A stretch of DNA of 64,000 nucleotides from Fibrobacteria bacterium. Its GTDB lineage: Bacteria; Fibrobacterota; Fibrobacteria; UBA11236. Positions 10,103 through 61,767 of this stretch are shown here, in pieces. Within the stretch, counting starts at the first letter, position 1; every line of letters begins with the position of its first letter. The notes beneath the pieces were generated by a model. It was not told the DNA's origin, did no database searches, and was given only the letters and a program-made list of their open reading frames with translations. Location: contig JAJNBB010000002.1 in the NCBI GenBank assembly GCA_021155885.1, positions 2,929 to 66,928 of the forward strand, read 5' to 3'. Position numbers and translations under genes: made by a program.

Positions 10103-10132
10103 GGCCTCGCGGCCTTGGGAGTCTTGGAGTCT

Positions 10133-16018: not shown

Positions 16019-18001
16019 ATGGCCCTGAAGATCCCGCGCCGCCGCCTGCTGCTCTTCGCGGTCCCCATTCTGCTGCCGGGCCTCGTGCTCGCCTACCTCA
16101 GCTTCCGTTCGGTGAAGGACGAGCGTCTGCTGCTGGAAAAATCGCAGGAGGCGCGCTACGAGTCCTTCGCCGACGCCGTGGACCGCACGATCCGCAAGAC
16201 GCGCCAGGCCCACCTCGAGCGGCTGCGCAAGGATCTGTCGGAAGGGGGCGCGGCCGAGACGCCCGCCGCCGCCTGGTCGCTCGCCTCGCGCCTGCTCGAG
16301 AACCCGCTGACGCATTCGGTGGCCGTCTTTCACGGAGACACCGCGATGTTCCCCCGCATGCCGCGCAACGATTCCGGGCCCGCCGAAAGCCTCTCCCCGG
16401 CCGCGGAAGGGCTGCGCCGCGGACCGCGCAACGCCCTGGAAAGACAGGTGCGCGAGGAGTGGCGCGCCGGCTTGTACGGAAAGGCGCTCGCGAGCCTGCG
16501 CCTGCTTTTGCACGGCCCCGACAGCCTCGGCCCGGAAAACGTCGAGCTCCGGTTCGGCTTTCGCCTGATGGAACTGAAATGCCTCGCGCGCCTTGGCGAC
16601 GCTTCCGAGGCCGTCGCGGCCGCGCGCCGCATGGTGCGCGACCTCATGGAAACCTCGGAATTGGACTCCTATTATCGAACGGGCTTCTATCTCTCGGAGA
16701 CGGCCGACCTGATGACCTCGATGGAAAACCTTCCCCGCGACGCGCGCGAGGAATTTTTCACCTTGCACCAGCGCCTGCCCCGCTTTCTTTCGAACGCGGA
16801 CGTCGTCCGCCGCGAGTGGCCGGATTCGCCCGAGGAAATCCTCCGCAGCCAGGCCTATGGACCGGAGGACTCGCTGCGCGTGCAGTACTACCGGGGCATG
16901 CCCTACCTGCTGGTCGGATTCCCCTGGCTGGACCAGGGTGCGCAGGCGCTGATCCGGCTGGAAGACCGCGTGCTGGTGGAAGCGCTGCGCACCGAACTGC
17001 AGCAGGACCGCCGCTCGTTGTGGAAGGACATGGACTTCTCCGTTTCGAACCTCCGCGACGAAACCGTCCTGGCCTCCGAGGGATTGAACGCGGGCGAGCG
17101 CGAGCCGGCGCTCGAGCGTTCCTTCGAGGAGCAGTTCCCGGCCTGGAGGCTCGTGGTCTACAAGAAGCCGGCGGGCGACCTCATCGCGCAGGGACGCTGG
17201 CGCATCGGGCTCCAGTACACCTTGCTGGCCTTCTCCCTCCTCTCGCTGCTGATGGGGATCGTGGTTTTGTTCAAGGCGCTGGCCGACGAGCAGCGCCTGG
17301 TCAGCATGAAGAGCAATTTCATCTCCGCCGTTTCCCACGAGCTGAAAACGCCGCTCACCGCCATCCGCATGTTTTCGGAGATGCTGGCGAGCGGGCGCGC
17401 GGCCGAGGAAAAGCGCGGGCAATACGCGCAGCGCATCGGCGCCGAGGCCGAGCGCCTGCAGGGCATGATCGAGGGGATTCTCAACTACACGCGCCTCGAG
17501 GAAAACCCGGACGCGCTGCGTTTCGAGGAACTCGACCTCTCCGAGGCGGCGCGGGATTCGGCGGCCCTGATGTCGGGAGCCTTCGCCAAGGCGGGCATTC
17601 GCCTGACGACCCGCCTGGCCGAAAGCGCCCCGTTGCGGGCCGACTACAACGCGGTGCGCTCCGTGATCCAGAATCTCCTGGAGAACGCGCTAAAATATTC
17701 CCCCGCCGGGTCCGAGGTCGTGTTGGAAATCCGCGCGCTTTCCGCGGAGATTATTCTGCGCGTTGCCGACCGGGGCATCGGCATCGAGCCGGCGGACCTG
17801 AAGCGTATTTTTGAGAAATTCTACCGGGCCGGGGACGAAATGACGCGGCGCACGCGCGGCAGCGGCCTGGGGCTGGCGCTGGTGAAGCGCATCGTGGACG
17901 CGCACGGCGGCACGATCAAGGTCGCCAGCAAACCCGGCGAGGGAACGGAAATGACGATAATTTTCAGGAGGGAAACGGATGCACCGCATACTGATCGTTG
18001 A
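16019..18001 (+). CDS. Sensor histidine kinase (HisKA/HATPase_c, OmpR-partner type) with a large periplasmic/sensor N-terminal region.
   Basis: N-terminal TM helix, second TM helix at about aa 400, H-box SHELKTPLTAIRMFSEML, and N/G1/G2 boxes (LENALKYSP, DRGIGI, GSGLGLALVKRI). Confidence 0.88.
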   Translation: MALKIPRRRLLLFAVPILLPGLVLAYLSFRSVKDERLLLEKSQEARYESFADAVDRTIRKTRQAHLERLRKDLSEGGAAETPAAAWSLASRLLENPLTHSVAVFHGDTAMFPRMPRNDSGPAESLSPAAEGLRRGPRNALERQVREEWRAGLYGKALASLRLLLHGPDSLGPENVELRFGFRLMELKCLARLGDASEAVAAARRMVRDLMETSELDSYYRTGFYLSETADLMTSMENLPRDAREEFFTLHQRLPRFLSNADVVRREWPDSPEEILRSQAYGPEDSLRVQYYRGMPYLLVGFPWLDQGAQALIRLEDRVLVEALRTELQQDRRSLWKDMDFSVSNLRDETVLASEGLNAGEREPALERSFEEQFPAWRLVVYKKPAGDLIAQGRWRIGLQYTLLAFSLLSLLMGIVVLFKALADEQRLVSMKSNFISAVSHELKTPLTAIRMFSEMLASGRAAEEKRGQYAQRIGAEAERLQGMIEGILNYTRLEENPDALRFEELDLSEAARDSAALMSGAFAKAGIRLTTRLAESAPLRADYNAVRSVIQNLLENALKYSPAGSEVVLEIRALSAEIILRVADRGIGIEPADLKRIFEKFYRAGDEMTRRTRGSGLGLALVKRIVDAHGGTIKVASKPGEGTEMTIIFRRETDAPHTDR

Positions 18002-18692
18002 GGACGAGGAAGCCATCCGCTCGGGCCTGCTCGATTTGCTGGAGATCGAGGGCTATGAAACCGCGGCGGTGGCCGACGGCGAAGCCGCGCTGGAGAAGGC
18101 CGCCCAGTGGAAGCCACACCTTGTGCTGCTCGACCTGATGCTGCCCAAGTCGAGCGGCTTCGACGTGTGCCGCCACCTCCGCAAGCATCATCCGGATATT
18201 TTCGTGATCATGCTGACCGCCAAGAACGAGGAGATGTCCAAGATCGCGGGCCTCGAGATGGGCGCGGACGATTACATCACCAAGCCGTTCAGCGTGTCGG
18301 AGCTGCTGGCGCGCGTGAAAACGCGCCTGCGCCGCCGCACCGAGGCCTCCGCGACGGGAGAGCCCGACCTGCTGGAGTTCGGCGAGGTCAAGATCGATTT
18401 CCGCCGGTACGAGGCCCTGCGCAAGGACAAGCACCTCGATCTCTCCGCCAAGGAGTTCCAGATCCTGCGCTACCTGGCGGGCCGCGCCGGCGAAGTCGTG
18501 ACGCGCGAGGACCTTTTGCAGGCGATCTGGGGCTACACCCCCGACAACATGCCCACCACGCGCACCGTGGACAACCAGATCCTGAAGCTGCGCCAAAAAC
18601 TGGAACAGGACGCGGCCCATCCCGTCTGGATCAAGAGCGTGCGGGGCGTCGGGTACAAGTTCGATCCCGAGGGCTCGCCGTCGGCGGAATGA
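17979..18692 (+). CDS. OmpR-family response regulator.
   Basis: Receiver domain (ILIVEDEE...LVLLDLMLP...ADDYITKPF) plus a winged-helix trans_reg_C domain (LSAKEFQILRYL...RTVDNQILKLRQKL). It overlaps the kinase by 23 nt. Confidence 0.9.
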   Translation: MHRILIVEDEEAIRSGLLDLLEIEGYETAAVADGEAALEKAAQWKPHLVLLDLMLPKSSGFDVCRHLRKHHPDIFVIMLTAKNEEMSKIAGLEMGADDYITKPFSVSELLARVKTRLRRRTEASATGEPDLLEFGEVKIDFRRYEALRKDKHLDLSAKEFQILRYLAGRAGEVVTREDLLQAIWGYTPDNMPTTRTVDNQILKLRQKLEQDAAHPVWIKSVRGVGYKFDPEGSPSAE

Positions 18693-21280
18693 TGAGCAGG
18701 CAAGACGGCAGGAAAAAAGCATGGGCGGGCGCGGTCGGCGCCCTCGCCCTGCTATGCCTGTGCCTGGGCCCGGCGCCGGCCGCGGCGCGCGACGCGCGCT
18801 ATGCCGAGGAACAAAGGGCGCTGGAGAACGCGCGCTACCTGTTCGAGATCGAGGGCGACAACGCGGGCGCTTACGCCATCCTCGACAAGTTGAAGGATTC
18901 CCGCAACGAGGAGATTCGCGCACAAGGGCTGTACCTGCGCGGTTTCTTTCTGGAAGAACAGGGTAAAACGGCCGAGGCCATCCGGCTGTATACCGGGGCG
19001 CTCGGCAGCGACGGCCTTCCCCCGCCGCAGAAACAGCGCCTGATCGCGCGCCTGCTGGAACTGAACCCCGAGGCCATCAAACCCTTCCGCGAGGCCGGAA
19101 AAACCCGGGGGCTGCCGGCGCGCGTGTTCGAAAGCCCCTCGGCGGCGGGAACGGTGTACGTGCTGGCGCAGGCCGGCGACGGGGAACGGGCGACCCGGCT
19201 TTCGGTGCAGGACAATCAGGGGATGCTGCGATCGCTGAACGCCGCCCTCACGGCGGACGAAGAGGTTCTCGACGCCACTCCCGACCGGGTGTTGACCCGC
19301 AGCCTTTCCCGCCAGAGAATTTTCCTGCGCCGCGCGCCGCGCTTCGCCGCGGTGGTGGCCGAGGAAAAATTCCAGGCGCTGGACGGATTCCTGTTCTCCG
19401 GGGAGTCCGGTGAATTCCTGCTCATCGGCGAAAGGGGCGTGCGGCTCATGCGCGGCGCGCAAACGTTGTTCTCGCACCCGCTTCCGGGGCCGGGCTGCGT
19501 CTACCACCCCTCGGCGCCGCGCGCGCGTCAGGGCGTTCTCTTCTGTCCCGGCCAGGGCCTCTACCGCGCCGACTTCGCGCGCCGCTCGCTCACGCCCCTT
19601 CCCCTCGCCGGGGAGGCCCCCTCCGAGGTCGTGCTCTCCGGGGAATACCTCGCGCTTCGCTATGTGGACAAGGTGGAAATCCGGCGCGGTCCCGCCTTCA
19701 ACGCCTTTCTCTGGGGATTCCCCTCGGGCCTTCAGGACCCCCTGGTATTGGGCCGCGGGCACGCCTTTTTGGCCTCGGGCGGCGGACCCCTGCGCGCCTT
19801 CTCGCTGCGGACCGGCCGCCTCGACTGGCAGCGCGACATCGGCGCCTCCGCGCTGCGGGCCGAAGGCGGTGAACTCTTCGTGCTCACGCACGCCCGCACC
19901 TGCCTCGCGCTCGACGAAAGGGGGCGCCTGCTTTACACCTACGAAACCGGATGGACCGAGGAAGAACCCCTGCTGCTGCCCACCCGCGACTGGCTGGTCG
20001 TGCAGCAAGCCGGAGGCGGGCGCACGCGCCTCAATCGCGAACTGCTCCGCCTGACGGGCCCCCACCGGGAATACCTGTTCCACGAGGTGAACGCGAACCT
20101 CGCGCGGGGCGATGCGCGCGGCGCGCTCAAGGAACTCAATTCCCTGATCGCCCTGGAACCCGGCAACGGCGCGGCCTGGCGAGAAAAAGCGCGCCTGCTG
20201 CCCGGCCTCGGCGCCTCCCGCGCCGAACAGACGCACGCCTGGCTGCAGGCCGCGCGTTCCGCCGGCGCCGCGCCCTGGAGCGCCGATCCGGCGTTCCGCA
20301 GCCTTTCGGCGGGTCTCGGGGCCGCCTGGACCTGGAAACGGCAGCCGGGTCCGCGCTTCTTCCCCGCCCTCACGGGCGGCCGCCAATTCGCCTTCTACGT
20401 GGAAAACGACAATCAAACCCTGGTGGTTCTCGATTCCCGCTCGGGCGCGCTCAAGGGAAGCTACCGCTTTCCGGAACCCCTCGATCTCAAGGTGGCGGCA
20501 TGGACGGGAGACACGCTGGTGGTATCGAGCGCGACCCGCCTGTACCTGATGGCGCCGCTGCGCGGGACCACGGTGCTCGCGCAAATCCGGCTGCGCAATC
20601 CCGTGGGACAGGCGCTGATGCTGCCCGAAGGTCTGCTCCTCAGCGACTGGAACGGGAACCTGCAACTGCTGGATCTCGCCGCGCGGCGGCCGCGCTGGGA
20701 AGCCCGCCTGGGCCGCGGAGGGCTCTTGCTGGCGCGCGTGAAAAGCGCCGGCGAGGTGGACGTCGCCGAAATCGAGGGCGGGTACCATCGCGTCCGCCTG
20801 CAGGACGGACGGAGCCTCGGGAGCCTGCGCCTGCCGCCGGGAACGATCACGGAGATCCACGCCGGCGAGGACCTCGCCTACGTGGGCTACAACGAAGGGC
20901 TCATCGTCGGCATCGACCGCGCCCGCACCGCCATCGCCTGGCAACGCGACATGGGAGAGCAGATCTTCAGCCTTTCCGGGCGCGGCGACCAGGTGCTGAT
21001 CGTCGGAACGGCCTCGAAGCGCATCCTCAACCTCCGCGGCAAGACCGGGGCCCCGCAATCCCAGACGCAGGTTTCCACCTATCTGTTCAACCGTCCCGTC
21101 CTCACCGACGAGGGCTATTGGATCGGCACCACCGAGCCCGCCCTCGAAAAGCGGTCCTGGGCCCACGTCGTGCTGCTCAAGCTGCCCCTGACCGACATGC
21201 CCGGAACGCCCTCCTTGGTGGGCCCCGGCATCGCCGTCTCCACCCTCGACAACTTCATCCTGCTGTTTCAGGCAAAGTGA
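18689..21280 (+). CDS. Secreted TPR plus PQQ-like beta-propeller repeat protein.
   Basis: The start (ATGATG) overlaps the response-regulator stop. Signal peptide (WAGAVGALALLCLCLGPAPAAA), N-terminal TPR-like helices, then repeated W-x-R/A-D/R-xG propeller blades (WQRDIG, WEARLG, WQRDMG). Confidence 0.7.
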   Translation: MMSRQDGRKKAWAGAVGALALLCLCLGPAPAAARDARYAEEQRALENARYLFEIEGDNAGAYAILDKLKDSRNEEIRAQGLYLRGFFLEEQGKTAEAIRLYTGALGSDGLPPPQKQRLIARLLELNPEAIKPFREAGKTRGLPARVFESPSAAGTVYVLAQAGDGERATRLSVQDNQGMLRSLNAALTADEEVLDATPDRVLTRSLSRQRIFLRRAPRFAAVVAEEKFQALDGFLFSGESGEFLLIGERGVRLMRGAQTLFSHPLPGPGCVYHPSAPRARQGVLFCPGQGLYRADFARRSLTPLPLAGEAPSEVVLSGEYLALRYVDKVEIRRGPAFNAFLWGFPSGLQDPLVLGRGHAFLASGGGPLRAFSLRTGRLDWQRDIGASALRAEGGELFVLTHARTCLALDERGRLLYTYETGWTEEEPLLLPTRDWLVVQQAGGGRTRLNRELLRLTGPHREYLFHEVNANLARGDARGALKELNSLIALEPGNGAAWREKARLLPGLGASRAEQTHAWLQAARSAGAAPWSADPAFRSLSAGLGAAWTWKRQPGPRFFPALTGGRQFAFYVENDNQTLVVLDSRSGALKGSYRFPEPLDLKVAAWTGDTLVVSSATRLYLMAPLRGTTVLAQIRLRNPVGQALMLPEGLLLSDWNGNLQLLDLAARRPRWEARLGRGGLLLARVKSAGEVDVAEIEGGYHRVRLQDGRSLGSLRLPPGTITEIHAGEDLAYVGYNEGLIVGIDRARTAIAWQRDMGEQIFSLSGRGDQVLIVGTASKRILNLRGKTGAPQSQTQVSTYLFNRPVLTDEGYWIGTTEPALEKRSWAHVVLLKLPLTDMPGTPSLVGPGIAVSTLDNFILLFQAK

Positions 21281-27166: not shown

Positions 27167-28969
27167 CTAAGGCTCGATCCAGCGGCCGTGGGACTTGATC
27201 AGGTTGACCAGCGCCTCGGGAGCCTCGTCCTCGGGGATGTTCTTCTGCACGCATTCACGGCCCACGTACAGGCTCACCTTGTTCGGGGCGCCTCCCACGT
27301 AACCGAAATCCGCGTCCGCCATCTCGCCCGGGCCGTTCACGATGCAGCCCATCACGGCGATGGAAATGTTCTTGAGGTGGGCCGTCTTGCTCCGGATGCG
27401 TTGCGTGGTGCTTTGCAGGTCGAACAGCGTGCGCCCGCAGCCGGGGCAGGCCACGTATTCCGGCTTCGAGCGGCGCACCGCGGCGGCCTGCAGGATGTCG
27501 TAGGCAAGGTTCAGGCCCGCCTTCACGCCCGCCGCGCTTTCGACGTGGATCAGGTCGCCGATGCCGTCGGCCAGCACCGCGCCGAGGCGCGCCGCCGCGC
27601 CCATGTTGCCCGTGGGGCTGCCGTCGGTGTGGTCGCGCAGCACGATCAAATCCTGGCGCTCCTGCCGGTCGAGCCATGCGGCGAGGTGGCGGTAGGCCCC
27701 CGCCAGGTTCGGCAGGAAGGGGTCGCAGGACCACAGCACGTCGCCTTCGGGAATCTCCACGAGATCCAGTTCGGCCAGGTCGCTGATGCAGATCTCCACG
27801 GGCTTTCCGGCCGGCAGCTTCTCCTCGTGGAGCGCGCCCGCGAACACGGGCCAGGTCTCGCCGTTGATCCACTCCGCCTTGCGGTCGCCCTTCGGCAGCG
27901 CTTCGGACCCGGGATTATGCACGCCCACGGCCACGGGCTCGCGGCCCCCGGCGACCAACGCCCCCAGGTTCACCGGACGGGTGTCGCGGCGCTGGTAGCT
28001 GTAAAAGGAAACGCTCTCGGGAAGCTCCGGCACCGCGGGGTAATGCGCCGTGTCGCAAAGCTTCATCAAGGTCTTCGCCACCGGCACCTCGTGCACCGGG
28101 TCCTCGGTGAGCGACACGCGGATGGTGTCCCCGAGGCCGTCGAGCAACAACGCGCCGATGCCCACCGAGGACTTCAGGCGTCCGTCCTCCCCGTCGCCCG
28201 CCTCGGTCACGCCGACGTGGAACGGGTAGGGCTTATGCGCCCCCGCCGCGAGGCGGTGCGCCAGCAGGCGGTAGGCCTGGATGGCCACGCGCGGGTTGCT
28301 GCTTTTCATGCTGAACACGATCTGGTCGAAATCCTCGGCCTCGCACACGCGCAGGTATTCGAGCGCCGATTCCACCATGCCCTCGATGGTGTCGCCGAAC
28401 TTCCACATGATGCGGTCCGACAGCGAGCCGTGGTTCGTGCCGATGCGCAGGGCCACGCCCCGCGCCTTCGCCTCGCGCACCAGCGGCGCGAAGGCGTCGT
28501 ATACCTTCTGCGTCCCGGTCTCGAACGAGGCGTCATCGTATTCCTTCATCTCCCCCGCGGCCTTCGAGTCCACGAAGTTGCCCGGGTTGATGCGCACCTT
28601 CTCCACCCACTTCACCGCTTCGTACGCGGCGCGGGGCTGAAAGTGGATGTCCGCCGAGATCGGGGCGTCGCATCCCGCCGCCCGCACCTTGGCGACGATG
28701 TCGCGGAGGCACTCCGCGTCCTTTTGCGTCGGGGCCGTGATGCGGATCAATTCGCAGCCGGCTTTCCACAATTCCAGCGTCTGGAACGCGGTGGCGTCGA
28801 TGTCCTTGGTGTTCGTCGTCGTCATCGACTGAACCAAAATCGGGTGTCCCCCGCCGATGACGCGGTTGCCCACGCGCACCGGAATCGTCTCCCGGCGTTC
28901 GGGGGCGAACCGGCTCGTTATATAGGGCGGATTATCGGGGAGGATCGCCCCGGCGGTTTTCTGGCTCAT
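27167..28969 (-). CDS. ispG: 4-hydroxy-3-methylbut-2-enyl diphosphate synthase, long form with inserted A* domain.
   Basis: About 600 aa. N-terminal TIM-barrel motifs (VQSMT, RIGTNHGSL) and a C-terminal 4Fe-4S domain (ACPGCGRT...MGCIVNGPGE) are separated by a roughly 250-aa insertion, as in the plant/Bacteroidota-type GcpE. Start at MSQKTAGAIL. Confidence 0.9.
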   Translation of the reverse strand: MSQKTAGAILPDNPPYITSRFAPERRETIPVRVGNRVIGGGHPILVQSMTTTNTKDIDATAFQTLELWKAGCELIRITAPTQKDAECLRDIVAKVRAAGCDAPISADIHFQPRAAYEAVKWVEKVRINPGNFVDSKAAGEMKEYDDASFETGTQKVYDAFAPLVREAKARGVALRIGTNHGSLSDRIMWKFGDTIEGMVESALEYLRVCEAEDFDQIVFSMKSSNPRVAIQAYRLLAHRLAAGAHKPYPFHVGVTEAGDGEDGRLKSSVGIGALLLDGLGDTIRVSLTEDPVHEVPVAKTLMKLCDTAHYPAVPELPESVSFYSYQRRDTRPVNLGALVAGGREPVAVGVHNPGSEALPKGDRKAEWINGETWPVFAGALHEEKLPAGKPVEICISDLAELDLVEIPEGDVLWSCDPFLPNLAGAYRHLAAWLDRQERQDLIVLRDHTDGSPTGNMGAAARLGAVLADGIGDLIHVESAAGVKAGLNLAYDILQAAAVRRSKPEYVACPGCGRTLFDLQSTTQRIRSKTAHLKNISIAVMGCIVNGPGEMADADFGYVGGAPNKVSLYVGRECVQKNIPEDEAPEALVNLIKSHGRWIEP

Positions 28970-29065
28970 TGTGATTGAAAAATAGGAAATGAAGCGTTGG
29001 GGGTTGCGAGAATGGCCCCAAAAACCGCCCAGGATTCGCGAAAACACAAAAAAACAACGGTGGCG

Positions 29066-30229
29066 CTAGAGCGGCAGGCGCGGGACGCGCACCTCGGTTT
29101 CGGTTCCCCGGTCCGTTGATTTGATTTTAAAGCGCCCATTCACGGAGGCCGCCCGTTCACGCATGCCTAGGAGTCCAAGACCGGCTCGCCGCTTCCCCTT
29201 GGGCAGAGACCCGGAATCGGAGTCAAAGCCTTTTCCATCGTCGTGAATGACCAGCCGAACGCCATCCACGTGCGTCGACAGCCTTATGCTTACGTGACGC
29301 GCCTTGGCATGCTTCTCCACGTTTCTCAGGGTTTCCTGCAGGATCCGGTAGAGCGCCAGTTCGGTATCGGCGGACAGGCGCGCCGCGAGCTTTACGAACG
29401 CCTCTTTGACGGGAATTCCCGTCCGCTTGCAGAACTCCGCGCTGATGTCCTGAAGGCCCGCCGCCAGGCCCAAGGTATCCAAAACGCTGGGCCGGAGATT
29501 GCGGGAGATGCTCTCCACTTCGTCGACCGTAGCGCCGATCATGGCAGAGAGCTTCAGGGCCGCGGCCTTCGACTTTACATCGCGGGCCGTAAGGCCCTTG
29601 GCAAGCACCTTGCTGTAGATGAGGATACCGCAAAGCATTTGCGTGATCGTGTCGTGCAGTTCATGGGAAAGGCGCACGCGCTCCTCTTCCTGCACCTGCA
29701 ATACCCGATGCGTGAGCGCCCTTAACCGCTCCTCGGACTTGTGGGCGCCCGTCATGTCGGTCACCACCATGCTGAGCGTGGCATCCCCGGAGCCGGTCCG
29801 GGAATCGTGATTCGCGATCGGGCGGATCGAAATATTCACGGGTATCTCCGACCCGCCTCCGACCCGAAGTTTCGCCTGCATCTTGAAGCCCGCCCTGCGG
29901 GGCCGCTTGAGAAGGGACCCGAGCACCGCCCGATCCTCAACGGAAAGAAAACGATGGAAAGGTCCGCCCGTAACCTGCTCGAGAGGATCTTTCACCATCC
30001 GGGCAAAGCACTCGTTGGCGTAGAGAATGGTCTTGTTCGCCGTGAGCGTCAGCGCGCCTTCATTCATGGATTCGATAAGCATCCGGTAGGCGTGCCCTTC
30101 TCCCTCCAGGGTGAAAACCTTGGAACCGTCCTTGCCGGCGACCACCACCGTATCCACCTCGCCCATGCGGATGGCGCGCAGCGCTTCTTCCGCTTCCGCC
30201 AACCGGACGCGGAGCCCGGGTGTTTTCAA
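29066..30229 (-). CDS. PAS-sensor histidine kinase of the HisKA_3 (NarL/DegS partner) type; last gene of the kai operon.
   Basis: N-terminal coiled coil, PAS fold (ALTLTANKTILYANECFARMV), HisKA_3 H-box (RLSHELHDTITQML), and HATPase_c (HDDGKGF, GLGLLGMRERA). The start overlaps the kaiB2 stop (ATGA). Confidence 0.85.
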   Translation of the reverse strand: MKTPGLRVRLAEAEEALRAIRMGEVDTVVVAGKDGSKVFTLEGEGHAYRMLIESMNEGALTLTANKTILYANECFARMVKDPLEQVTGGPFHRFLSVEDRAVLGSLLKRPRRAGFKMQAKLRVGGGSEIPVNISIRPIANHDSRTGSGDATLSMVVTDMTGAHKSEERLRALTHRVLQVQEEERVRLSHELHDTITQMLCGILIYSKVLAKGLTARDVKSKAAALKLSAMIGATVDEVESISRNLRPSVLDTLGLAAGLQDISAEFCKRTGIPVKEAFVKLAARLSADTELALYRILQETLRNVEKHAKARHVSIRLSTHVDGVRLVIHDDGKGFDSDSGSLPKGKRRAGLGLLGMRERAASVNGRFKIKSTDRGTETEVRVPRLPL

Positions 30230-30579
30230 GCGGCCGCCTTAGGGGGCGGGATCAGGTCAAGCTCGGCGAACAGTCCGGAAATATTCAGCAGGTTGCCGAT
30301 GAACCGGCGCGCCGGCTTGGGCCGTTCCTTGACAAGGGTCGGCGTGGCAATGATCTGGTTCGCGCGCGCCAACTCGGGCTGCTGATAGATATCGACCACT
30401 TCCAGAACAAAATTGTCCGGAATCTCCGCCTCGCACAAGTGGCGGATCCTGAGCACCGCCTCGCGCGACCGGGTCGTGGCCCCGGCCACGAACAGGCGCA
30501 TGACATACTTTTTGCGAGGCCCCGCGCTCCCGGATTGCGGAGAAGTCCTTGCGACGGGAGGCGTGCGTTTGCGCTTCAT
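30226..30579 (-). CDS. kaiB: KaiB-family protein, copy 2, with a basic N-terminal extension.
   Basis: YVMRLFVAGATTRSREAVLRIRHLCE...FVLEVVDIYQQPELARANQIIATPTLVK matches the KaiB thioredoxin-like core. About 25 extra K/R-rich residues at the N-terminus. Confidence 0.85.
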   Translation of the reverse strand: MKRKRTPPVARTSPQSGSAGPRKKYVMRLFVAGATTRSREAVLRIRHLCEAEIPDNFVLEVVDIYQQPELARANQIIATPTLVKERPKPARRFIGNLLNISGLFAELDLIPPPKAAA

Positions 30580-30583
30580 GGGT

Positions 30584-30895
30584 TCACTCCGGTTTGCCCG
30601 CGAGGCGAAGATCCAGCCCGACCAGGGCCCTTTCCGTATCGGAAAGATTGCCGATGAGCACGCGCACGGGCTTCGGCAATAACCTTACCACCGTGGGAAT
30701 GGCGAGGATCTGGTCGCCTTTGGCCAGCTTGGGATGCTTCCTCAAATCGATCACCCGGATGTGGTAGCGCCCCTTTAGATGGGTTTCGCAAAATTCCTTA
30801 AGATTCGCGAGCGCGATTCCCGATCGGGGCGACTGATCGTTCACATACAGGCGCAATTGCCATTTTTCGACTTGGGCGGTTTTGGCAGGAGTCAT
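30584..30895 (-). CDS. kaiB: KaiB-family protein, copy 1 (canonical length).
   Basis: WQLRLYVNDQSPRSGIALANLKEFCE...YHIRVIDLRKHPKLAKGDQILAIPTVVR. 103 aa. The start overlaps the kaiC stop (ATGA). Confidence 0.88.
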   Translation of the reverse strand: MTPAKTAQVEKWQLRLYVNDQSPRSGIALANLKEFCETHLKGRYHIRVIDLRKHPKLAKGDQILAIPTVVRLLPKPVRVLIGNLSDTERALVGLDLRLAGKPE

Positions 30896-32673
30896 TTTAC
30901 CCTCGGCCTTCCAGGCCTTGCGCGCGCGGCGCGCGGCCCCGCGACCACCTTGGCGTCGGCCTGCCGCAGAATTCCCGAGGCCGCGCGTTCCGTGGTCAGC
31001 AAGCGCGTTTGCGTTCCAACCTGTTCGGCGATGCGCCGCAGCTCCAGGGCCTCCGTCTCATAGTCCTCCCGCAGCCCGCCGATTTGCCGCTCCAGGGCCG
31101 CCCGCTTACGCTCCACGGCGCGCTGAAGCTGCGCCGCTTCCTGCTGGCTCGCCAGGCCGGCGGCCCTCTCCAGGTCTTCCTGGGCCACGCGCGCGGAGCC
31201 CGTCAGCACGCCGCTGGGGCCTATATAAGCGTCCACCAGGTCGATACCCTGGTCCGAAATCAGGAACTCGCGGATCTGGTTCGAATGCGCCATGCCCCGC
31301 GCCTTCAGCACGTAAAGCACGCGGTTGCGTTCGCCGTTGCCTTCGTAGTCCTGAAGCAGGAGCCAAGAGTCCATCAACGAGGACATCGCCGCCTCGCTTT
31401 GTTGCAGGGCATGCCCGCCCTGGGTCAAACTGGTGAAGAGCGAGGTGACTTGCCCGGCCTTGAGGTAGTCAATCAGCCGGGTCACCATGCCTTTGCTTTC
31501 GGAGCCGGTTCCGGCATCCATCAAGCTCGTAATGGGGTCGATCACGACGACATGCGGCTTAAAGGCCGCGATCTCCTTGAACATGGTGGCCAGGTGCATT
31601 TCCAGGCCGTACAGGGACGGTCGCGCCGAATGGAAGCGCAACAGGCCCTTGGCGAGCAGGGGTTCCAGGCGCAGGCCGATGGATTGCATGTTGCGGACGA
31701 TCTGGTTCGGCGATTCCTCGAACGAGAAAAAGAGAACGCGCTCCCCGCGCAGGGCGGCGGCCTGGGCGAAATTGGCGGCCACGATGGTCTTGCCGGTGCC
31801 GGGCGTTCCGGTGAGCAAAATACTGCTGCCGCGAAAGAACCCGCGGCCGCCGAGCATGGCATCGAGCCGGGGAATGCCCGTGGCGATGCGCTCGTTGGAA
31901 ATCCTATGGTTCAATCCCAGCGAGGTGATGGGCAGCACGCTGATGCCGGTCTCGCCGATGAGAAACGGGAATTCGTTGGTGCCGTGCAGCGCCCCCCGGT
32001 ATTTCACCACGCGCAAGTGCCGGGTGGCGATCTGATCGCAGACGCGATGATCGAGAAGGATGACGCAATCGGACACGTACTCTTCCAGCCCGTGACGCGT
32101 CAATTGCTCGCGCCCGCGTTCTCCGGAACCGCGCTCCGCCGTGATCACGGCGGTCACGCCCTTGTCCTTCAGCCAGCGGAACAGCCGCCGCAGTTCGGCG
32201 CGCAGGATGGCCTCGTTGGGAATGCAGGCGAACAGGGCCTCCAGCGTATCCAGGACCACGCGCTTCGCGCCAATGGAATCGATGGCGTAGCCCAGCCTTA
32301 CGAACAGCCCCTCGAGATCGTAATCGCCGCTCTCCTGCAGTTCGCTGCGTTCCAGGTGGACGTAGTCGATGAGGATTTTTTTGCGGCGAACAAGGCCGTC
32401 CAGGTCAAAACCCAGTGACGACACGTTGGCCTTGAGCTCGCCTTCGGTTTCTTCGAAGGACATCAGTACGCCCGGCTCACCGAACATGGCCGCGCCGCGC
32501 ACCAGGAATTCGGCCGCCAAAAGCGTCTTTCCGCAGCCGGCGCTGCCGCATACCAAGGTGGGCCGCCCGCGCGGGAGGCCTCCGCCCGTGATTTCGTCGA
32601 GCCCTTGTATGCCCGTGGGGCACTTGGGCAATTGCCTCACCGGCGGAGCGCGTTTAACGACGCTTTTTTTCAT
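30892..32673 (-). CDS. kaiC: KaiC double-RecA ATPase/autokinase with a roughly 110-aa C-terminal coiled-coil extension.
   Basis: Two Walker A motifs (GSAGCGKT in CI, GTPGTGKT in CII) and conserved catalytic Glu pairs. The CII segment AAMSSLMDSW aligns with the S. elongatus HISTITDT phospho-site loop, giving Ser-Ser at the S431/T432 equivalents. The C-terminus is an Ala/Glu/Arg/Gln-rich heptad region. Confidence 0.92.
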   Translation of the reverse strand: MKKSVVKRAPPVRQLPKCPTGIQGLDEITGGGLPRGRPTLVCGSAGCGKTLLAAEFLVRGAAMFGEPGVLMSFEETEGELKANVSSLGFDLDGLVRRKKILIDYVHLERSELQESGDYDLEGLFVRLGYAIDSIGAKRVVLDTLEALFACIPNEAILRAELRRLFRWLKDKGVTAVITAERGSGERGREQLTRHGLEEYVSDCVILLDHRVCDQIATRHLRVVKYRGALHGTNEFPFLIGETGISVLPITSLGLNHRISNERIATGIPRLDAMLGGRGFFRGSSILLTGTPGTGKTIVAANFAQAAALRGERVLFFSFEESPNQIVRNMQSIGLRLEPLLAKGLLRFHSARPSLYGLEMHLATMFKEIAAFKPHVVVIDPITSLMDAGTGSESKGMVTRLIDYLKAGQVTSLFTSLTQGGHALQQSEAAMSSLMDSWLLLQDYEGNGERNRVLYVLKARGMAHSNQIREFLISDQGIDLVDAYIGPSGVLTGSARVAQEDLERAAGLASQQEAAQLQRAVERKRAALERQIGGLREDYETEALELRRIAEQVGTQTRLLTTERAASGILRQADAKVVAGPRAARARPGRPRVK

Positions 32674-32795
32674 TCGGGGTCCTTTGGAAACGCCACTTCC
32701 AAATACCCCGCCCGGTGAGAAGACGGTATGGGGTCAAACCCTACCCCAGGCGATAAACCGCGTCCGGCGCCCTTCACGCCGCGGGAAGCCGGTTC

Positions 32796-32822
32796 CTTGC
32801 AGGGCGCATCTGAGATGCGCCC
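32796..32822. terminator. Hairpin GGGCGCATC-TGA-GATGCGCCC downstream of the AraC-family gene, separating it from kaiC.
   Basis: Perfect 9-bp palindrome directly 3' of the minus-strand AraC stop. Coordinates approximate. Confidence 0.45.
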
Positions 32823-32825
32823 CAA

Positions 32826-33752
32826 CTATGCGGCCAACAATTGCTTTTTGAACTCCCGCGGCGAGACGCCCTGGATACGCTTGAACGCCTTGGAGAACAC
32901 GAACGGGTCGCCGTAGCCCACGCGCTCCGCGATCGCGTCGAGATTGTCGTCGGTGGCGCGGAGTAAGTCCATCGCGCGCTGGATGCGGAGGCGGGCCAGG
33001 TAATGCCCCGGCGTGTCCGACGCAAGCTTCTTGAAGCGCTGCGCGAACGCCGCGCGCGAAAGCCCCGCCCGTTCGGCCAGCTCCTCCAGGTTCCAGTCCC
33101 GCTCCGGGTGGGCGTGCATCGCCTCGATCGCCCGGTGCAGGTGCGGGTCCCGCAGCGCGCGGCTCCAGCGGCCTTCGCCGGCCCCTTCGCGGTTCACCCC
33201 TTCCCTCTCCAGCCAGTTCCGCAGGATGTAATGGAACATCACGTCAAGCAGGGCCTTCACCACCGCCTCCGAGCCTTCCCCGCCCTGAGCCAGCTCCGCG
33301 GACAACAGTTGCTGCGCGACGTTCAAAGGGCTGTGCGCGGGGATTTCGTTGGACCGGATCACGATCATCTCCGGGAGCTCGGCGAACAAGGGATGGATGG
33401 GCTCCGTCTGGAATTGATAGAGGCCGCAGGTGACCACCGCGAGCGGTGGGACGTCAGTATCCTCGGGCACCGGGAAGGGACCGGCGCGTAGCGCGGTCGG
33501 GGCCTCGGTGACCCTATCCGTGGATACTACGTGGTCGAAGCCGCGGCGGATCAGCACGACATCGCCGCGCTCCAGGCGCAGCGGCGCGTCGAAGCGCGGC
33601 GCGCGGATGTAGGCCTCGCCGTACGTGACGATGTGGAAGCCCATGCTTTGGTTGCACGGCAGTTTCATCGCCCAGGGAGAATGGAAGGCGTGACTGACCA
33701 ATAGGGATTTGCGCAGGCCCGCGGAATTCAGGATGTCGGTCAGCACGTCCAT
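32826..33752 (-). CDS. AraC-family transcriptional regulator (cupin-like N-domain plus HTH_AraC).
   Basis: C-terminal RAGLSRAAFAQRFKKLASDTPGHYLARLRIQRAMDLL...IAERVGYGDPFVFSKAFKRIQGVSPREF is a classic AraC HTH pair. Confidence 0.88.
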   Translation of the reverse strand: MDVLTDILNSAGLRKSLLVSHAFHSPWAMKLPCNQSMGFHIVTYGEAYIRAPRFDAPLRLERGDVVLIRRGFDHVVSTDRVTEAPTALRAGPFPVPEDTDVPPLAVVTCGLYQFQTEPIHPLFAELPEMIVIRSNEIPAHSPLNVAQQLLSAELAQGGEGSEAVVKALLDVMFHYILRNWLEREGVNREGAGEGRWSRALRDPHLHRAIEAMHAHPERDWNLEELAERAGLSRAAFAQRFKKLASDTPGHYLARLRIQRAMDLLRATDDNLDAIAERVGYGDPFVFSKAFKRIQGVSPREFKKQLLAA

Positions 33753-33882
33753 GGGTTAAAAATACGCTTTGTTTAAAAATCCCGCTATAAATATTTAAAG
33801 ACATGTTTAAAGGACATAAAACCATGTTTAATCCACATAATTCCTCATAAATTACCTCCATCACTTCAAACAGGAGGCCATC
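33753..33882. promoter_or_regulatory. AT-rich divergent promoter region between the AraC-family gene and the NmrA-like gene, with direct repeats CATGTTTAA.
   Basis: GC drops to about 30 % in an otherwise roughly 68 % GC window. CATGTTTAA occurs twice, 22 nt apart, plus a TTGTTTAAAAA variant. SD AGGAGG precedes the NmrA ATG. Confidence 0.55.
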
Positions 33883-34716
33883 ATGGCTCAGATTCTGATC
33901 GTCGGCGGTTCGGGTACGGTAGGTTCGGAAATCGTCAAAACGCTTAAGGCCGAAGGACATTCCGTCCGGGTCGCCACCAGCAAGCCCACCACGGAAGCGG
34001 GTAAAATGCATGTGAATCTCCTCACCGGCGACGGCCTCGACGCCGCGTTCGAAGGCGTGGAGCGCGCCTTCTTCCTCTCCCCCGGCGGCTACGCCGACCA
34101 GTACGCCATCTTGGCCCCGCTGATCGCCAAGGCCAAGGAAGCCAAGCTCAAGAAAGTCGTGCTGATGACAGCGCTGGGCGTCGAAGGCGCCGAAGGATCC
34201 CCCATGCGCCGCGCCGAGCTCGACCTCATCGCCTCGGGCATTCCCTACAACATCATTCGCCCAAGCTGGTTCAGCCAGAACTTCGTGAACTTCTGGGGTT
34301 ACGGCATCAAGACTGCGAACACGATCGCGCTCCCCGTGGGCGACGGCAAGGCCGCCTTCATCGACAGCCGTGACATCTCGGCCGTGGCCGCGAAGCTTCT
34401 GACGGACGACAGCCGCAATGGCCAGGAGTACACGCTCACCGGTCCCCAAGCCCTGACGCACACGGAAGTCGCGAAGATTATCGCCGATGCCACGGGCAAG
34501 CCGGTGACCTTCAAGGACATCTCGCCCGACGAACTCCGTCCCGTGTTGGTCGGAGCCGGCATCCCGGCGGACTATGTGGAATTGCTGCTGGTGTTGCTCA
34601 GCTACATCAAGGCGGGGTATACGGGCGCGGTCACGAACAGCGTCGAGGAAATCCTGGGCCGCAAGCCGCGGGACTTCCGGAGCTATGCCAAGGAAGCGGC
34701 GGACAGCTGGAAGTAG
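33883..34716 (+). CDS. NmrA-like / NAD(P)H-binding SDR-family oxidoreductase.
   Basis: N-terminal Rossmann ILIVGGSGTVGSEIV. 277 aa with NmrA-family layout. Confidence 0.8.
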   Translation: MAQILIVGGSGTVGSEIVKTLKAEGHSVRVATSKPTTEAGKMHVNLLTGDGLDAAFEGVERAFFLSPGGYADQYAILAPLIAKAKEAKLKKVVLMTALGVEGAEGSPMRRAELDLIASGIPYNIIRPSWFSQNFVNFWGYGIKTANTIALPVGDGKAAFIDSRDISAVAAKLLTDDSRNGQEYTLTGPQALTHTEVAKIIADATGKPVTFKDISPDELRPVLVGAGIPADYVELLLVLLSYIKAGYTGAVTNSVEEILGRKPRDFRSYAKEAADSWK

Positions 34717-46916: not shown

Positions 46917-47234
46917 TCACGGATCGAGCATTCGCGACAGGCCGGCCCAGCCCCCGCCATTGACCACTTCGGCGAAGCCGTTTTCCTCCAGCGCCCTTTT
47001 GGCGGAGGCGCTGCGCATGCCGCTCGCGCAGCAGGTGATGACGGGTTTGTCCTTGCGCAGCTTGCCGAGATGGCGTTCGAGATGCGGCAGGGGCAGGTTC
47101 ATCGACCCGTTTATGTGCCCTCCTCGGTATTCGTCGGGAGAGCGCACGTCCACGATCTGGGCGCCGCGCCGGCGGAGTTCCGCGAAATCCACGGAAGGCC
47201 CGGAACCGGCGAGCTTCTTGAGAAAATCGAACAT
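46917..47234 (-). CDS. Single-domain rhodanese-like sulfurtransferase.
   Basis: Active-site loop CCASGMRS. 105 aa. Confidence 0.85.
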   Translation of the reverse strand: MFDFLKKLAGSGPSVDFAELRRRGAQIVDVRSPDEYRGGHINGSMNLPLPHLERHLGKLRKDKPVITCCASGMRSASAKRALEENGFAEVVNGGGWAGLSRMLDP

Positions 47235-47243
47235 GAATTCCTT

Positions 47244-47726
47244 TCAGGCGGCGCGGGAAACCGGGTCCGCCGGTGCGGCGGCAGAAACCGTCGCGTTGGT
47301 GAAGATCGTCCGGCCATTGTAGACGACCGACCACGTCACGGGCAAAATGCGCTTGAGCATGTGGCTGACGCCGCAGTATTGCTCCTGGGAGCGGGTGACG
47401 GCCTCCAGTGCCGCCTCCCGGTCGGCCTCGGAACCCGTGAAGTCGTACTCCACATGGACGGCCTCGTAGACGATGGGCGGACGCGCGGAAATTTCGCCGG
47501 TTACCTTCAGGCTGAAGGTGTCGGCCGGCTTCCCCGCCTTGCGCAGCAGCGCCGCGACGTCCATGCCGGTGCATCCCGCCAGCGCGGCGAGCATCAGGGG
47601 TTTGGGTATCGGCCCGCGATCGTCGCCGCCCGCGCGCTCGGGGGCGTCCATCACCACCGTGTGACCGCTGACCGCGGCATGAAACTCCATGCCGCCGATC
47701 CATTGCGCTTCGATTTCGTGTCGCAT
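47244..47726 (-). CDS. OsmC/Ohr-family peroxiredoxin-like protein.
   Basis: Two conserved Cys contexts (LAGCTGMD, QYCGVSHML). Start at MRHEIEAQW. Confidence 0.75.
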   Translation of the reverse strand: MRHEIEAQWIGGMEFHAAVSGHTVVMDAPERAGGDDRGPIPKPLMLAALAGCTGMDVAALLRKAGKPADTFSLKVTGEISARPPIVYEAVHVEYDFTGSEADREAALEAVTRSQEQYCGVSHMLKRILPVTWSVVYNGRTIFTNATVSAAAPADPVSRAA

Positions 47727-47780
47727 CGTACCTCCTGAAAAGAAGGTACCCACGCGCACGGAGCCGGTCTGTTACTTAGG

Positions 47781-48425
47781 TTACCGTTCTTCGGGAAGCA
47801 GGCCGGCCAGCAATTTCACCTGGTTGCGAAACAGCACGACCTTGCCGTCGCCTTCCAGTTTCTTCAGCAGTCGCGAGACCACCACGCGGGAGGTGGCCAG
47901 TTCCTCCGCGATTTTTTCATGCGATAGATTGACGAGTGTTCCGCCGGCGGCCCGGGCCTTTTCCTTGAGGTAGGCGACCAGTCTCTGGTCGAGGTTTTGA
48001 AAGGCGATCTGGTCGATCGTGCGCAGGAGCTCGTTGAAGCGTTCCCGGACCGTGCGCATCACGAAGGCCTTCCAGGCGGGAAAACGAACCAGCCAGTCCC
48101 CCATCGCCTCCACCGGCACCAGCAGCACCTCCGCGTCCTCTTCGGCCACGGCCTGGATCTCGCTCGCCTGGCGGTCCATGCAACAGGTAAAGGTCATCGC
48201 GCAGCTTTCCTCCGGCCCCAGATGGTACAGAAAAAGCGCGCGTCCCGCCTCGTCCACGCGCGATACCTTGAGAAGTCCCGACAGCACGATGGGCATGGCC
48301 GTCACCATGGTTCCCGGTTCCAGCAGCGACTCTCCCGCCGCGAGGTGCCGTGTTCGCGCCTTGGCGGCGATTTCGGCGGACAGATCGGGGCCGAGGACGT
48401 CCTGAAAATGCGCGGGAAGAATCAT
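47781..48425 (-). CDS. Crp/Fnr-family transcriptional regulator.
   Basis: cNMP-binding-like beta-roll plus a C-terminal HTH (SHEKIAEELATSRVVVSRLLKKLEGDG). Confidence 0.85.
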   Translation of the reverse strand: MILPAHFQDVLGPDLSAEIAAKARTRHLAAGESLLEPGTMVTAMPIVLSGLLKVSRVDEAGRALFLYHLGPEESCAMTFTCCMDRQASEIQAVAEEDAEVLLVPVEAMGDWLVRFPAWKAFVMRTVRERFNELLRTIDQIAFQNLDQRLVAYLKEKARAAGGTLVNLSHEKIAEELATSRVVVSRLLKKLEGDGKVVLFRNQVKLLAGLLPEER

Positions 48426-60964: not shown

Positions 60965-61038
60965 GCAGGTGTGGCCAAACTGGATAAGGCATCTGACTAC
61001 GAATCAGAAGACTCCAGGTTCGAATCCTGGCACTTGCA
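60965..61038 (+). tRNA. tRNA-Arg (anticodon ACG).
   Basis: Cloverleaf with acceptor GCAGGTG/CACTTGC (one G-U pair), T-arm CCAGG-TTCGAAT-CCTGG, anticodon stem TCTGA/TCAGA with loop CTACGAA, and discriminator A. CCA is not encoded. Confidence 0.85.
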
Positions 61039-61314: not shown

Positions 61315-61767
61315 ATGGATCCAATCGCACTTTTGAAGGCCGATCACAGGAAGGTCGAGGAACTGTTCAAGAAGCTGGAGGATACCACGGAGCGCGCCGT
61401 GAAGACGCGCACCGAGCTGTTCGAAAAGCTGAGGATGGAATTGACCGTCCATGCCCTCGCCGAGGAAGCGGTGCTGTATCCCGAAAACAAGGAGATCCCG
61501 TCAACGCGCGAACTCGGCTTCGAGGCCGTGGAAGAGCACCACGTCGTGAAAATCCTGCTGGACGAGCTTTCCGAGCTTTCCCCCGATACCGAGGAATGGA
61601 CGGCCAAGCTTTCGGTGCTGAAGGAAAACGTCCAGCATCACGTCAAGGAAGAAGAGGGGGAGATCTTCCCCAAGACGAAGAAGGCCCTGTCGGCGGAGGA
61701 GCTCGACGAAATGGGCGCCCGCCTTTTCGAGGAAAAGGAAAAGCTGCTGGGGCATATGCCGGCATAG
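61315..61767 (+). CDS. Hemerythrin HHE cation-binding domain protein.
   Basis: Paired H...E / HH...E motifs (HRKVEELF, EEHHVVK, QHHVKEEE). 150 aa. Confidence 0.8.
   Translation: MDPIALLKADHRKVEELFKKLEDTTERAVKTRTELFEKLRMELTVHALAEEAVLYPENKEIPSTRELGFEAVEEHHVVKILLDELSELSPDTEEWTAKLSVLKENVQHHVKEEEGEIFPKTKKALSAEELDEMGARLFEEKEKLLGHMPA

Follow-up and report, generated by a model that had tools for sequence, protein, structure and literature searches.

The kaiC-kaiB1-kaiB2-kinase cassette and its proteins

The stretch of contig JAJNBB010000002.1 analyzed here, hereafter the window, is 64,000 nt long and carries on its minus strand, at 29066-32673, four open reading frames (ORFs) that form a compact kai cassette: kaiC, two kaiB genes (kaiB1 and kaiB2), and a gene encoding a sensor histidine kinase. 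The ORFs lie where an earlier note on this sequence had placed them, and the Pfam and NCBIfam assignments agree with the identities proposed there (Table 1). As read from the sequence, kaiC and kaiB1 overlap at ATGA, kaiB1 and kaiB2 are spaced by 4 nt, and kaiB2 and the kinase gene overlap at TTGA. The earlier note had described ATGA at both overlaps; its reading stands for the kaiC/kaiB1 junction and for the 4-nt gap, but the kaiB2/kinase junction gives the kinase a TTG start. The 4-nt overlap between kaiB2 and the kinase gene was kept in 54 of 71 related loci, with TTG in 28, GTG in 17, and ATG in 9 of them. Because TTG is the commonest start across these conserved overlaps, the TTG start in the window is no artifact. 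The start of kaiB2 is called differently by JGI (91 aa, from Met27) and Logan (117 aa). The long form is favored, since GGAG lies 7 nt before the upstream ATG and most orthologs are 117 aa long.

Table 1. Coordinates of the kai cassette and its features in the window
Feature	Position	Strand	Remark
Hairpin, GC-rich	32802..32822	-	directly past the stop of the upstream AraC-family gene
kaiC 5' untranslated/promoter region	32674..32801	-	AAGGA Shine-Dalgarno-like motif ~9 nt before ATG
kaiC, 593 aa	30892..32673	-	Pfam and NCBIfam
KaiC CI domain	31927-32622	-	
KaiC CII domain	31189-31887	-	
KaiC C-terminal extension, aa 496-593	30895-31188	-	
KaiC Walker A	aa 43-50 GSAGCGKT; aa 289-296 GTPGTGKT	-	motif location
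KaiC catalytic FEE	aa 73-75; aa 318-320	-	motif location
KaiC phosphosite pair S431/S432, in MSSLMD	nt 31378-31383	-	aligned to KaiC-RS GLSSLMD
kaiB1, 103 aa	30584..30895	-	PF07689
kaiB2, 117 aa	30226..30579	-	PF07689
Sensor histidine kinase, 387 aa, TTG start	29066..30229	-	Pfam and NCBIfam
Kinase Kai-associated N-terminal motif, aa 1-45	30095-30229	-	
Kinase PAS, aa 48-144	29798-30088	-	
Kinase HisKA_3, aa 183-250	29480-29683	-	
Kinase phospho-acceptor His189 in HELHD (aa 189-193)	29663-29665	-	
Kinase HATPase_c, aa 290-384	29078-29362	-	

KaiC matched PF06745 in two stretches (356.6 bits, Pfam). In NCBIfam, it scored 712 bits against NF006799 (cutoff, 408) and fell below the cutoff of the cyanobacterial TIGR02655 (338 versus 546). 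The closest solved structure was 8DBA, the KaiC-RS of Rhodobacter (Cereibacter) sphaeroides (E = 3.8e-190, 636 bits), to which KaiC is 55% identical over 541 aa, coiled-coil tail included. The alignment runs to residue 557, so that most of the C-terminal extension appears to correspond to the KaiC-RS tail. By sequence, KaiC belongs to the KaiC-RS/KaiC2 type, with tandem RecA-like domains, Ser-Ser in place of Ser-Thr at the phosphosites, and a tail-like extension of roughly 50 residues at the C terminus. Pitsawong et al. reported that the tail in the KaiC-RS clade links two hexamers as a coiled coil and keeps the A-loops exposed, which leads to KaiA-independent autophosphorylation; that KaiB-RS in the fold-switched state binds the CI domain and speeds ATP hydrolysis; and that KaiC-RS and KaiB-RS form an hourglass dependent on the ATP:ADP ratio (PMC10076222). 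The KaiC-RS system is, by homology only, the best guide to the KaiC of the window. A tail of this kind would take the place of KaiA, which may account for a cassette without kaiA. The identity with KaiC-RS, tail included, also favors the view expressed in the earlier note that an hourglass is likelier here than a true clock (PMC10076222).

Both KaiB proteins scored well above the PF07689 cutoff of 27 in Pfam (82.5 bits for KaiB1 and 77.4 bits for KaiB2). Against the cyanobacterial KaiB equivalog NF006798/TIGR02654, they scored 88.9 and 67.4, respectively, and neither reached the cutoff of 110. By these profiles, they are KaiB-family proteins and not equivalogs of the clock KaiB. KaiB1 is a canonical KaiB in which the Gly and Asp of the VGLDL motif are kept; its best sequence match in the PDB was 8FWJ_M, KaiB-RS, with 50% identity. 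KaiB2 has the motifs DIYQQP and ATPTL and carries Glu in place of Gly89; its N-terminal extension of about 20 to 25 aa is basic and disordered. The extension had been noticed from the window alone, and its length is conserved in the orthologs. The KaiB2 sequence also matches the N-terminal domain of SasA (N-SasA, 6X61_B), and its best sequence matches are KaiB proteins. The possibility that KaiB2 is an unrelated protein of thioredoxin fold, raised in the earlier note for both kaiB ORFs, was rejected on its profile score and these matches.

The two KaiB proteins of the window are 35% identical in their core, and their relatives fall into separate clades, with 67% identity within each and 44% between them; all 62 KaiB2 sequences form one neighbor-joining clade. 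Their description as divergent paralogs thus holds. The KaiB1 clade keeps AIPT and LSDTxRVLVGLDLR, with Gly at the position of Thermosynechococcus elongatus Gly89 in 53 of 57 sequences. The KaiB2 clade has invariant DxYQQP, ATPTL, and RRFIGNL, the basic N-terminal extension, and a variable C-terminal segment; among 51 paired KaiB2 sequences, the Gly89 position is occupied by Glu in 26, Gly in 17, and other residues in 8. KaiB-RS is nearer to the KaiB1 clade (54%) than to the KaiB2 clade (43%), and the same holds for cyanobacterial KaiB (about 50% versus 42 to 44%).

The kinase consists of a PAS domain, HisKA_3 (PF07730, 39.2 bits), and HATPase_c (PF02518, 48.3 bits). Its H, N, G1, and G2 boxes are intact, with ETLRNVEKH at aa 299-307, DDGKG at aa 330-334, and GLGLLGMRER at aa 350-359. 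Neither Pfam nor NCBIfam detected a PF07689 or other KaiB-like domain of the SasA type in the kinase, in line with the earlier note; its N terminus consists of a conserved motif followed by PAS. When seven kinases encoded next to kaiB in four phyla were aligned, this module, LRxRLxEAEETLxAIRxGxVDAxVV...VFTLxGA..YR...E.M.EGA.TL and then PAS, proved conserved, whereas the catalytic core varied: HisKA_3 in the window, HWE in R. sphaeroides, and HisKA with or without a receiver domain (REC) in Pararhizobium, Pedosphaera, Planctomycetota, and Gallionella. The module is missing from a second HisKA_3 kinase that some relatives encode upstream of kaiC. Since the module is constant while the core is swapped, and since the second kinase is without it, the module is the Kai-linked part of the protein and the output chemistry is interchangeable.

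Conservation of the cassette and a candidate response regulator

The relatives used for comparison were those with the 76 closest KaiC sequences (74 to 87% identity) in a scan of species-representative genomes. Almost all are metagenome-assembled genomes (MAGs) of Verrucomicrobiota, among them Opitutaceae, Lacunisphaera, Didemnitutus, and Rariglobus, and were recovered from lakes, ponds, and peat. The identical KaiC sequence was found on metagenome contigs of JGI sample 3300044648 and run SRR15168755. Four MAGs from 'binchicken' assemblies that are labeled Bifidobacteriaceae or Spirochaetaceae (loci L004, L013, L024, and L060) carry the same cassette with a KaiC 77 to 87% identical to the Verrucomicrobial one; these labels are probably wrong.

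Gene order was counted in the 68 loci with at least 1 kb downstream of kaiC. KaiB1 is followed by KaiB2 in 58 of them, a KaiB2-type protein stands alone in 10, and the reverse order occurs in none; the kinase with the N-terminal/PAS module comes next in 67. The four-gene order is also present in a Pedosphaera MAG and on plasmid p3 of the cultured Pararhizobium qamdonense. More distant loci of Chloroflexota, Planctomycetota, another Verrucomicrobium, and Gallionella carry between two and four kaiB genes in tandem, with YQQP in the final one. A protein search with the N-terminal 170 aa of the kinase returned mostly truncated metagenome fragments; two gene contexts were obtained, and both were kaiC-kaiB-kaiB. 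With a profile of the KaiB2 clade, 2750 cluster representatives among 1.84 billion were found at E <= 1e-10, and 90 of the best 150 carry a YQQP-type motif.

Several loci depart from the common layout. Four tandem kaiB genes follow kaiC in a Planctomycetota MAG (L081, 6650-8200), and a second kaiC-kaiB pair lies about 3.5 kb upstream of the main cassette in L030. In L011, the sole KaiB starts like KaiB1 (LWQLRLYV) and continues like KaiB2 (AGATERS...VYQQP), as expected of a deletion fusing the paralogs. In-frame fusions of the two KaiB types (KaiB-I::KaiB-II) of 206 to 247 aa were found in P0361, P0365, P0367, and P0371, of which P0361 lies on a 1.1-kb contig and occurs in two samples. If genuine, these fusions argue that both KaiB proteins act in one complex. 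Other two-domain matches (P0362, P0375, P0386, and P0403) look like frameshift artifacts. On a 2.3-kb metagenome contig, a KaiB2-like domain with IIDIYQQP and AAPTLIK is joined to a C-terminal receiver (P0400; L088, 1165-2019).

The output partner of the kinase had been considered unknown from the window alone. Clustering of the neighbors of the 76 loci revealed a recurrent regulator of the NarL/LuxR type, about 226 aa long and composed of REC and GerE, beside the cassette in 22 loci; in L025, for example, a NarL-type regulator lies at 9674-10345. The regulator directly follows the kinase gene in 15 of 60 loci and directly precedes kaiC in 7 of 60; in 18 of the 48 loci where both flanks allow a judgment, it adjoins the cassette. 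HisKA_3 kinases as a rule pair with NarL-family regulators. From this rule and the adjacent regulators in the relatives, we infer that the partner belongs to the NarL/LuxR class and would here be encoded outside the window. Within the window, Pfam searches of about 50 ORFs gave no NarL-type regulator, KaiA, SasA, or CikA, and tblastn with 28 regulator sequences matched only an unrelated OmpR receiver. The earlier note had stated that the operon has no kaiA and no adjacent NarL/LuxR-type regulator, and the ORF searches across the 64 kb bear this out.

Directly upstream of kaiC and on the same strand, about 16 related loci encode a CheB-CheR-PAS_10 fusion of about 900 aa and a second kinase of PAS-PAS-HisKA_3 structure (L009, L021, L024, L025, L038, L050, L056, L057, L066, L073, and others; for example, L025, 1422-5989). 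This arrangement suggests an extra sensory layer, none of which is present in the window.

Predicted KaiB folds and a proposed timing unit

Wayment-Steele et al. reported that AlphaFold2, when fed close relatives only, reports the favored state of a KaiB (PMC10808063). Each KaiB of the window was modeled with AlphaFold2 from an alignment of 54 sequences of its own clade. The KaiB1 model has the topology b-a-b-a-a-a-b, with the C-terminal strand of the ground state. In Foldseek, its top 17 PDB matches were all ground-state KaiB crystals (TM, 0.72 to 0.84; 82 to 105 alignment columns), and fold-switched structures matched only its N-terminal half. The KaiB2 model has the topology b-a-b-a-b-b-a, which is thioredoxin-like and fold-switched. 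Its top 17 matches comprised Legionella KaiB, KaiC-bound KaiB-RS, a fold-switch-stabilized KaiB, KaiB-TV4, and the SasA N-domain, and a ground-state KaiB appeared first at rank 49; the closest structure was the Legionella KaiB Lpp1115 (TM, 0.85). By these models, the resting form of KaiB1 would be the ground state and that of KaiB2 the fold-switched state, which we regard as a lead and not as a finding. Chang et al. are said to have found in 2015 that the G89A substitution stabilizes fold-switched KaiB, and because of that effect the prediction for KaiB2 agrees with its loss of Gly89. The N-SasA sequence match of KaiB2 also agrees with a thioredoxin-like prediction.

Taken with the homology to KaiC-RS, we consider the cassette to be a KaiA-independent KaiBC timing and signaling unit of the KaiC2/KaiC-RS type with a two-component output, on a chromosome that is Opitutaceae-like by its KaiC relatives; we give this reading a probability of about 0.6. 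By homology, KaiC hexamers would be joined through the C-terminal coiled coil with their A-loops exposed and would autophosphorylate at S431/S432 without KaiA while ATP is plentiful. KaiB1 would then switch from the ground state, bind the CI ring, speed ATP hydrolysis, and drive dephosphorylation as the ATP:ADP ratio falls. The outcome would be an hourglass that the environment resets in every cycle and not a free-running clock. For KaiB2, we propose that a permanently thioredoxin-like protein may act as an unfused SasA N-domain that quickly reads the state of KaiC, and that KaiB2 and the N-terminal/PAS module of the kinase may couple this state to kinase activity. The HisKA_3 kinase would phosphorylate a NarL/LuxR-type regulator, which is encoded beside the cassette in many relatives and would be encoded elsewhere in this genome.

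The adaptor role is proposed for KaiB2 because its gene always adjoins that of the kinase, because the two genes overlap, because the kinase module travels with kaiB, and because PAS and SasA domains offer precedents. In Pseudomonas, a kinase binds KaiC through its PAS domain (bioRxiv 10.1101/2022.01.26.477890), the PAS domains of KidA bind KaiB (PMC9478674), and the thioredoxin-like domain of SasA uses the KaiB site on KaiC (bioRxiv 10.1101/2020.06.17.158394). A further and more tentative idea is that the two KaiB states are divided between the paralogs, with KaiB1 as a slow switching timer and KaiB2 as a permanently fold-switched adaptor that docks on KaiC and passes its state to the PAS-headed kinase. 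Such a pair would represent an ancient, multi-phylum output of KaiA-free Kai timers in non-phototrophic bacteria that was lost in the single-KaiB models; we consider this reading less likely than not.

A number of observations weigh against the proposed timing unit. Sequence alone does not fix the direction of signaling, output or input. The confidence of the AlphaFold2 models was moderate (mean pLDDT, 67 to 69), with three of the five models near 50, and the choice of AlphaFold2 between KaiB folds may echo its training structures and not thermodynamics (PMC11934219). One third of the paired KaiB2 proteins still carry Gly89. Gly89 was more frequent in lone KaiB2 proteins (6 of 10) than in paired ones (17 of 51), but a regain of Gly89 in the former was not significant (p = 0.16). 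KaiB2-type proteins stand alone in the 10 loci mentioned above, and a KaiB1-type protein stands alone in R. sphaeroides beside the same kinase module, so that neither paralog is strictly needed for either role. The lack of the regulator from the window also counts on this side. In a promoter and terminator scan of 28800-33900, nothing exceeded the shuffle expectation and no sigma-70 consensus was found, and past the kinase stop a T-run is present while folding gave no significant hairpin.

Instead of a day/night timer, the cassette could also be a stress or starvation-duration module of the kind proposed for the KaiC systems of Legionella and Pseudomonas, in which KaiC phosphorylation reports energy state or culture age and the kinase relays it to stress genes. 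The Legionella Lpp1115 KaiB, nearest to the KaiB2 model, belongs to an operon tied to stress response in work cited in PMC10808063, and in Pseudomonas a KaiC with a PAS kinase is associated with stress resistance and tracks culture age (bioRxiv 10.1101/2022.01.26.477890). The host, taken from the KaiC relatives to be a non-phototrophic Verrucomicrobium of fresh water or soil, would suit such a role, and BON-domain, ECF sigma, and single-REC genes are often near related loci. However, KaiC is far closer to the hourglass KaiC of R. sphaeroides than to any other solved KaiC, and both KaiC phosphosites and a canonical KaiB1, features tied to timing, are kept. We consider this explanation possible but not probable, and the two readings are not exclusive, as an hourglass driven by ATP:ADP also senses energy state. 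It is also conceivable, though unlikely, that the PAS kinase is an input that senses redox, oxygen, or a metabolite and resets or modulates KaiBC. Such a role was once suggested for R. sphaeroides, where redox input by the kinase is mentioned (PMC5520375), PAS domains are typical sensors, and the additional CheB-CheR-PAS protein and second HisKA_3 kinase upstream in about 16 loci fit a sensory function. Against it, the four catalytic boxes of the kinase are all intact, and a DNA-binding regulator adjacent to it, as in 22 loci, is how output pathways are normally laid out. No signature of cofactor binding, for instance the cysteine motif of LOV domains, was seen in the kinase PAS sequence, and a conserved N-terminal module beside kaiB with a swapped core fits a docking module.

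That KaiB2 is a redundant duplicate without a role of its own appears improbable. Either KaiB type can be the sole KaiB, as the lone KaiB2-type proteins and R. sphaeroides illustrate, and the C-terminal half of KaiB2 is variable. However, the clades have stayed apart across several phyla in a fixed gene order (58 loci against none reversed), the KaiB2 clade maintains its within-clade identity and its invariant residues, and the predicted folds of the two proteins differ. Least probable is a self-sustained, temperature-compensated circadian oscillator with KaiB2 in the place of KaiA. A third component is indeed present in the cassette, and a damped KaiA-free oscillation is known in Synechococcus (PMC7205874); yet KaiB2 has no similarity to KaiA, the coiled-coil tail of KaiC-RS already gives a KaiA-like function and the system nevertheless behaves as an hourglass (PMC10076222), and no non-cyanobacterial Kai oscillator is known to free-run.

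The earlier note had taken the operon for a distinct architecture, which does not hold for the layout as a whole. Ma et al. described a kaiC-kaiB-PAS/histidine kinase operon in Rhodopseudomonas palustris and R. sphaeroides (PMC4794148), kaiC-kaiB with a kinase is the common context outside cyanobacteria (PMC3164672), and 'kaiCBB' is named briefly in a genome note on Thiodictyon syntrophicum (PMC5944118). The pB plasmid locus of R. sphaeroides 2.4.1 contains kaiC, one kaiB (89 aa), and an HWE kinase, whose N terminus matches the kinase of the window with 41% identity over residues 6-88 (E = 1e-14). The R. sphaeroides system (8DBA and 8FWJ) shares with the window the Ser-Ser phosphosite, the C-terminal extension, the absence of KaiA, and the kaiC-kaiB-kinase order; unlike the window, it has one KaiB of the KaiB1 type, an HWE_HK/HisKA_2 core instead of HisKA_3, and a plasmid locus in a purple phototroph. 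The proto-circadian timer of R. palustris, likened here by published layout and not by sequence, has the kaiC-kaiB-PAS/histidine kinase order and kaiC-dependent timing without KaiA (PMC4794148), but a single kaiB and a phototrophic host. The cyanobacterial KaiABC-SasA-RpaA system resembles the window in its double-domain KaiC and fold-switching KaiB. It differs in having KaiA, in a KaiB-like module that is fused to the kinase and not separate as in KaiB2, and in an OmpR-type regulator where the HisKA_3 kinase of the window would use a NarL-type one.

The closest parallels to the paired KaiB proteins have been annotated or mentioned only, and not studied. On plasmid p3 of P. qamdonense, the first KaiB is 64% identical to KaiB1 and the second 54% identical to KaiB2, with DLYQHP and Glu at the Gly89 position; the kinase has the same N-terminal/PAS module but is a HisKA and REC hybrid. 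In T. syntrophicum, tandem kaiB genes follow kaiC as in the window, whereas the neighbor is a diguanylate cyclase. The KaiBC of Legionella pneumophila and the KaiC modules of Pseudomonas share with the window non-phototrophic hosts and a KaiC with a PAS kinase, and the Legionella KaiB is the nearest to the KaiB2 fold; however, the Pseudomonas systems are without KaiB, and the KaiC proteins of both are more distant, with a role assigned to stress and not to timing. A literature search on tandem kaiB genes in kaiC2 operons gave only the passing 'kaiCBB' mention, and no study of paired paralogs was found. A KaiA-free KaiBC system with a kinase is, as a whole, of an already known kind. What is new is the conserved second KaiB with its predicted alternative fold, the probable HisKA_3/NarL wiring, and the Verrucomicrobial host, as judged from the KaiC relatives.

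What is known of KaiA-free Kai timers comes from R. sphaeroides and R. palustris, with one KaiB each. The four-gene form with two KaiB proteins is common: Opitutaceae-like Verrucomicrobiota carry it as a rule, and it also occurs in Rhizobiaceae, Pedosphaera, Planctomycetota, Chloroflexota, and Gallionella. Should the two KaiB proteins indeed differ in resting fold, the cassette would amount to a natural experiment on the effect of fold switching on timing, and it would reveal how a Kai timer is read without SasA. The cultured P. qamdonense is a tractable organism, and the four proteins are small enough for in vitro reconstitution. Through this locus, the known range of Kai systems comes to include abundant freshwater and peat heterotrophs, in which daily rhythms would track substrate supply and not light.

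Flanking sequence and other genes of the window

The hairpin between the upstream AraC-family gene and kaiC has a stem of 9 to 10 bp and a 3-nt loop, with a folding energy of -18.4 kcal/mol (z = -3.5 versus shuffles) and no U-tract. The 5' limit of the kai transcription unit probably lies here, and the hairpin may act as a terminator. The AraC gene was examined as a possible member of the system and was rejected, as it adjoins kaiC in none of the 76 related loci and is separated from it by this strong hairpin. An Rfam scan of the whole window gave only a tRNA at 60965-61038 and no riboswitch or leader RNA. The flanking genes (ispG, a SpoU methylase, UbiD, an NmrA-like protein, and the AraC regulator) are of the housekeeping type and are not conserved beside kaiC in the relatives. 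Third-position GC was 0.69 to 0.81 in the kai genes and 0.87 to 0.89 in the neighboring housekeeping genes, and the flanks differ in every relative; both would fit a mobile or weakly expressed cassette.

Elsewhere in the window, a separate, classical two-component pair, the only other one detected, lies on the plus strand at 16019-18692, with a HisKA/HATPase kinase (16019-18001) overlapping an OmpR-type regulator (17979-18692). A long ORF at 18107-21280, called by a GC3-based program, is probably a high-GC artifact, the real gene being that of the OmpR regulator. At 46917-48425 on the minus strand, genes for a rhodanese, an OsmC-like protein, and a Crp/FNR regulator are clustered, and a hemerythrin gene is present at 61315-61767 on the plus strand. 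All four are genes of oxidative or redox stress and show no evident connection to kai.

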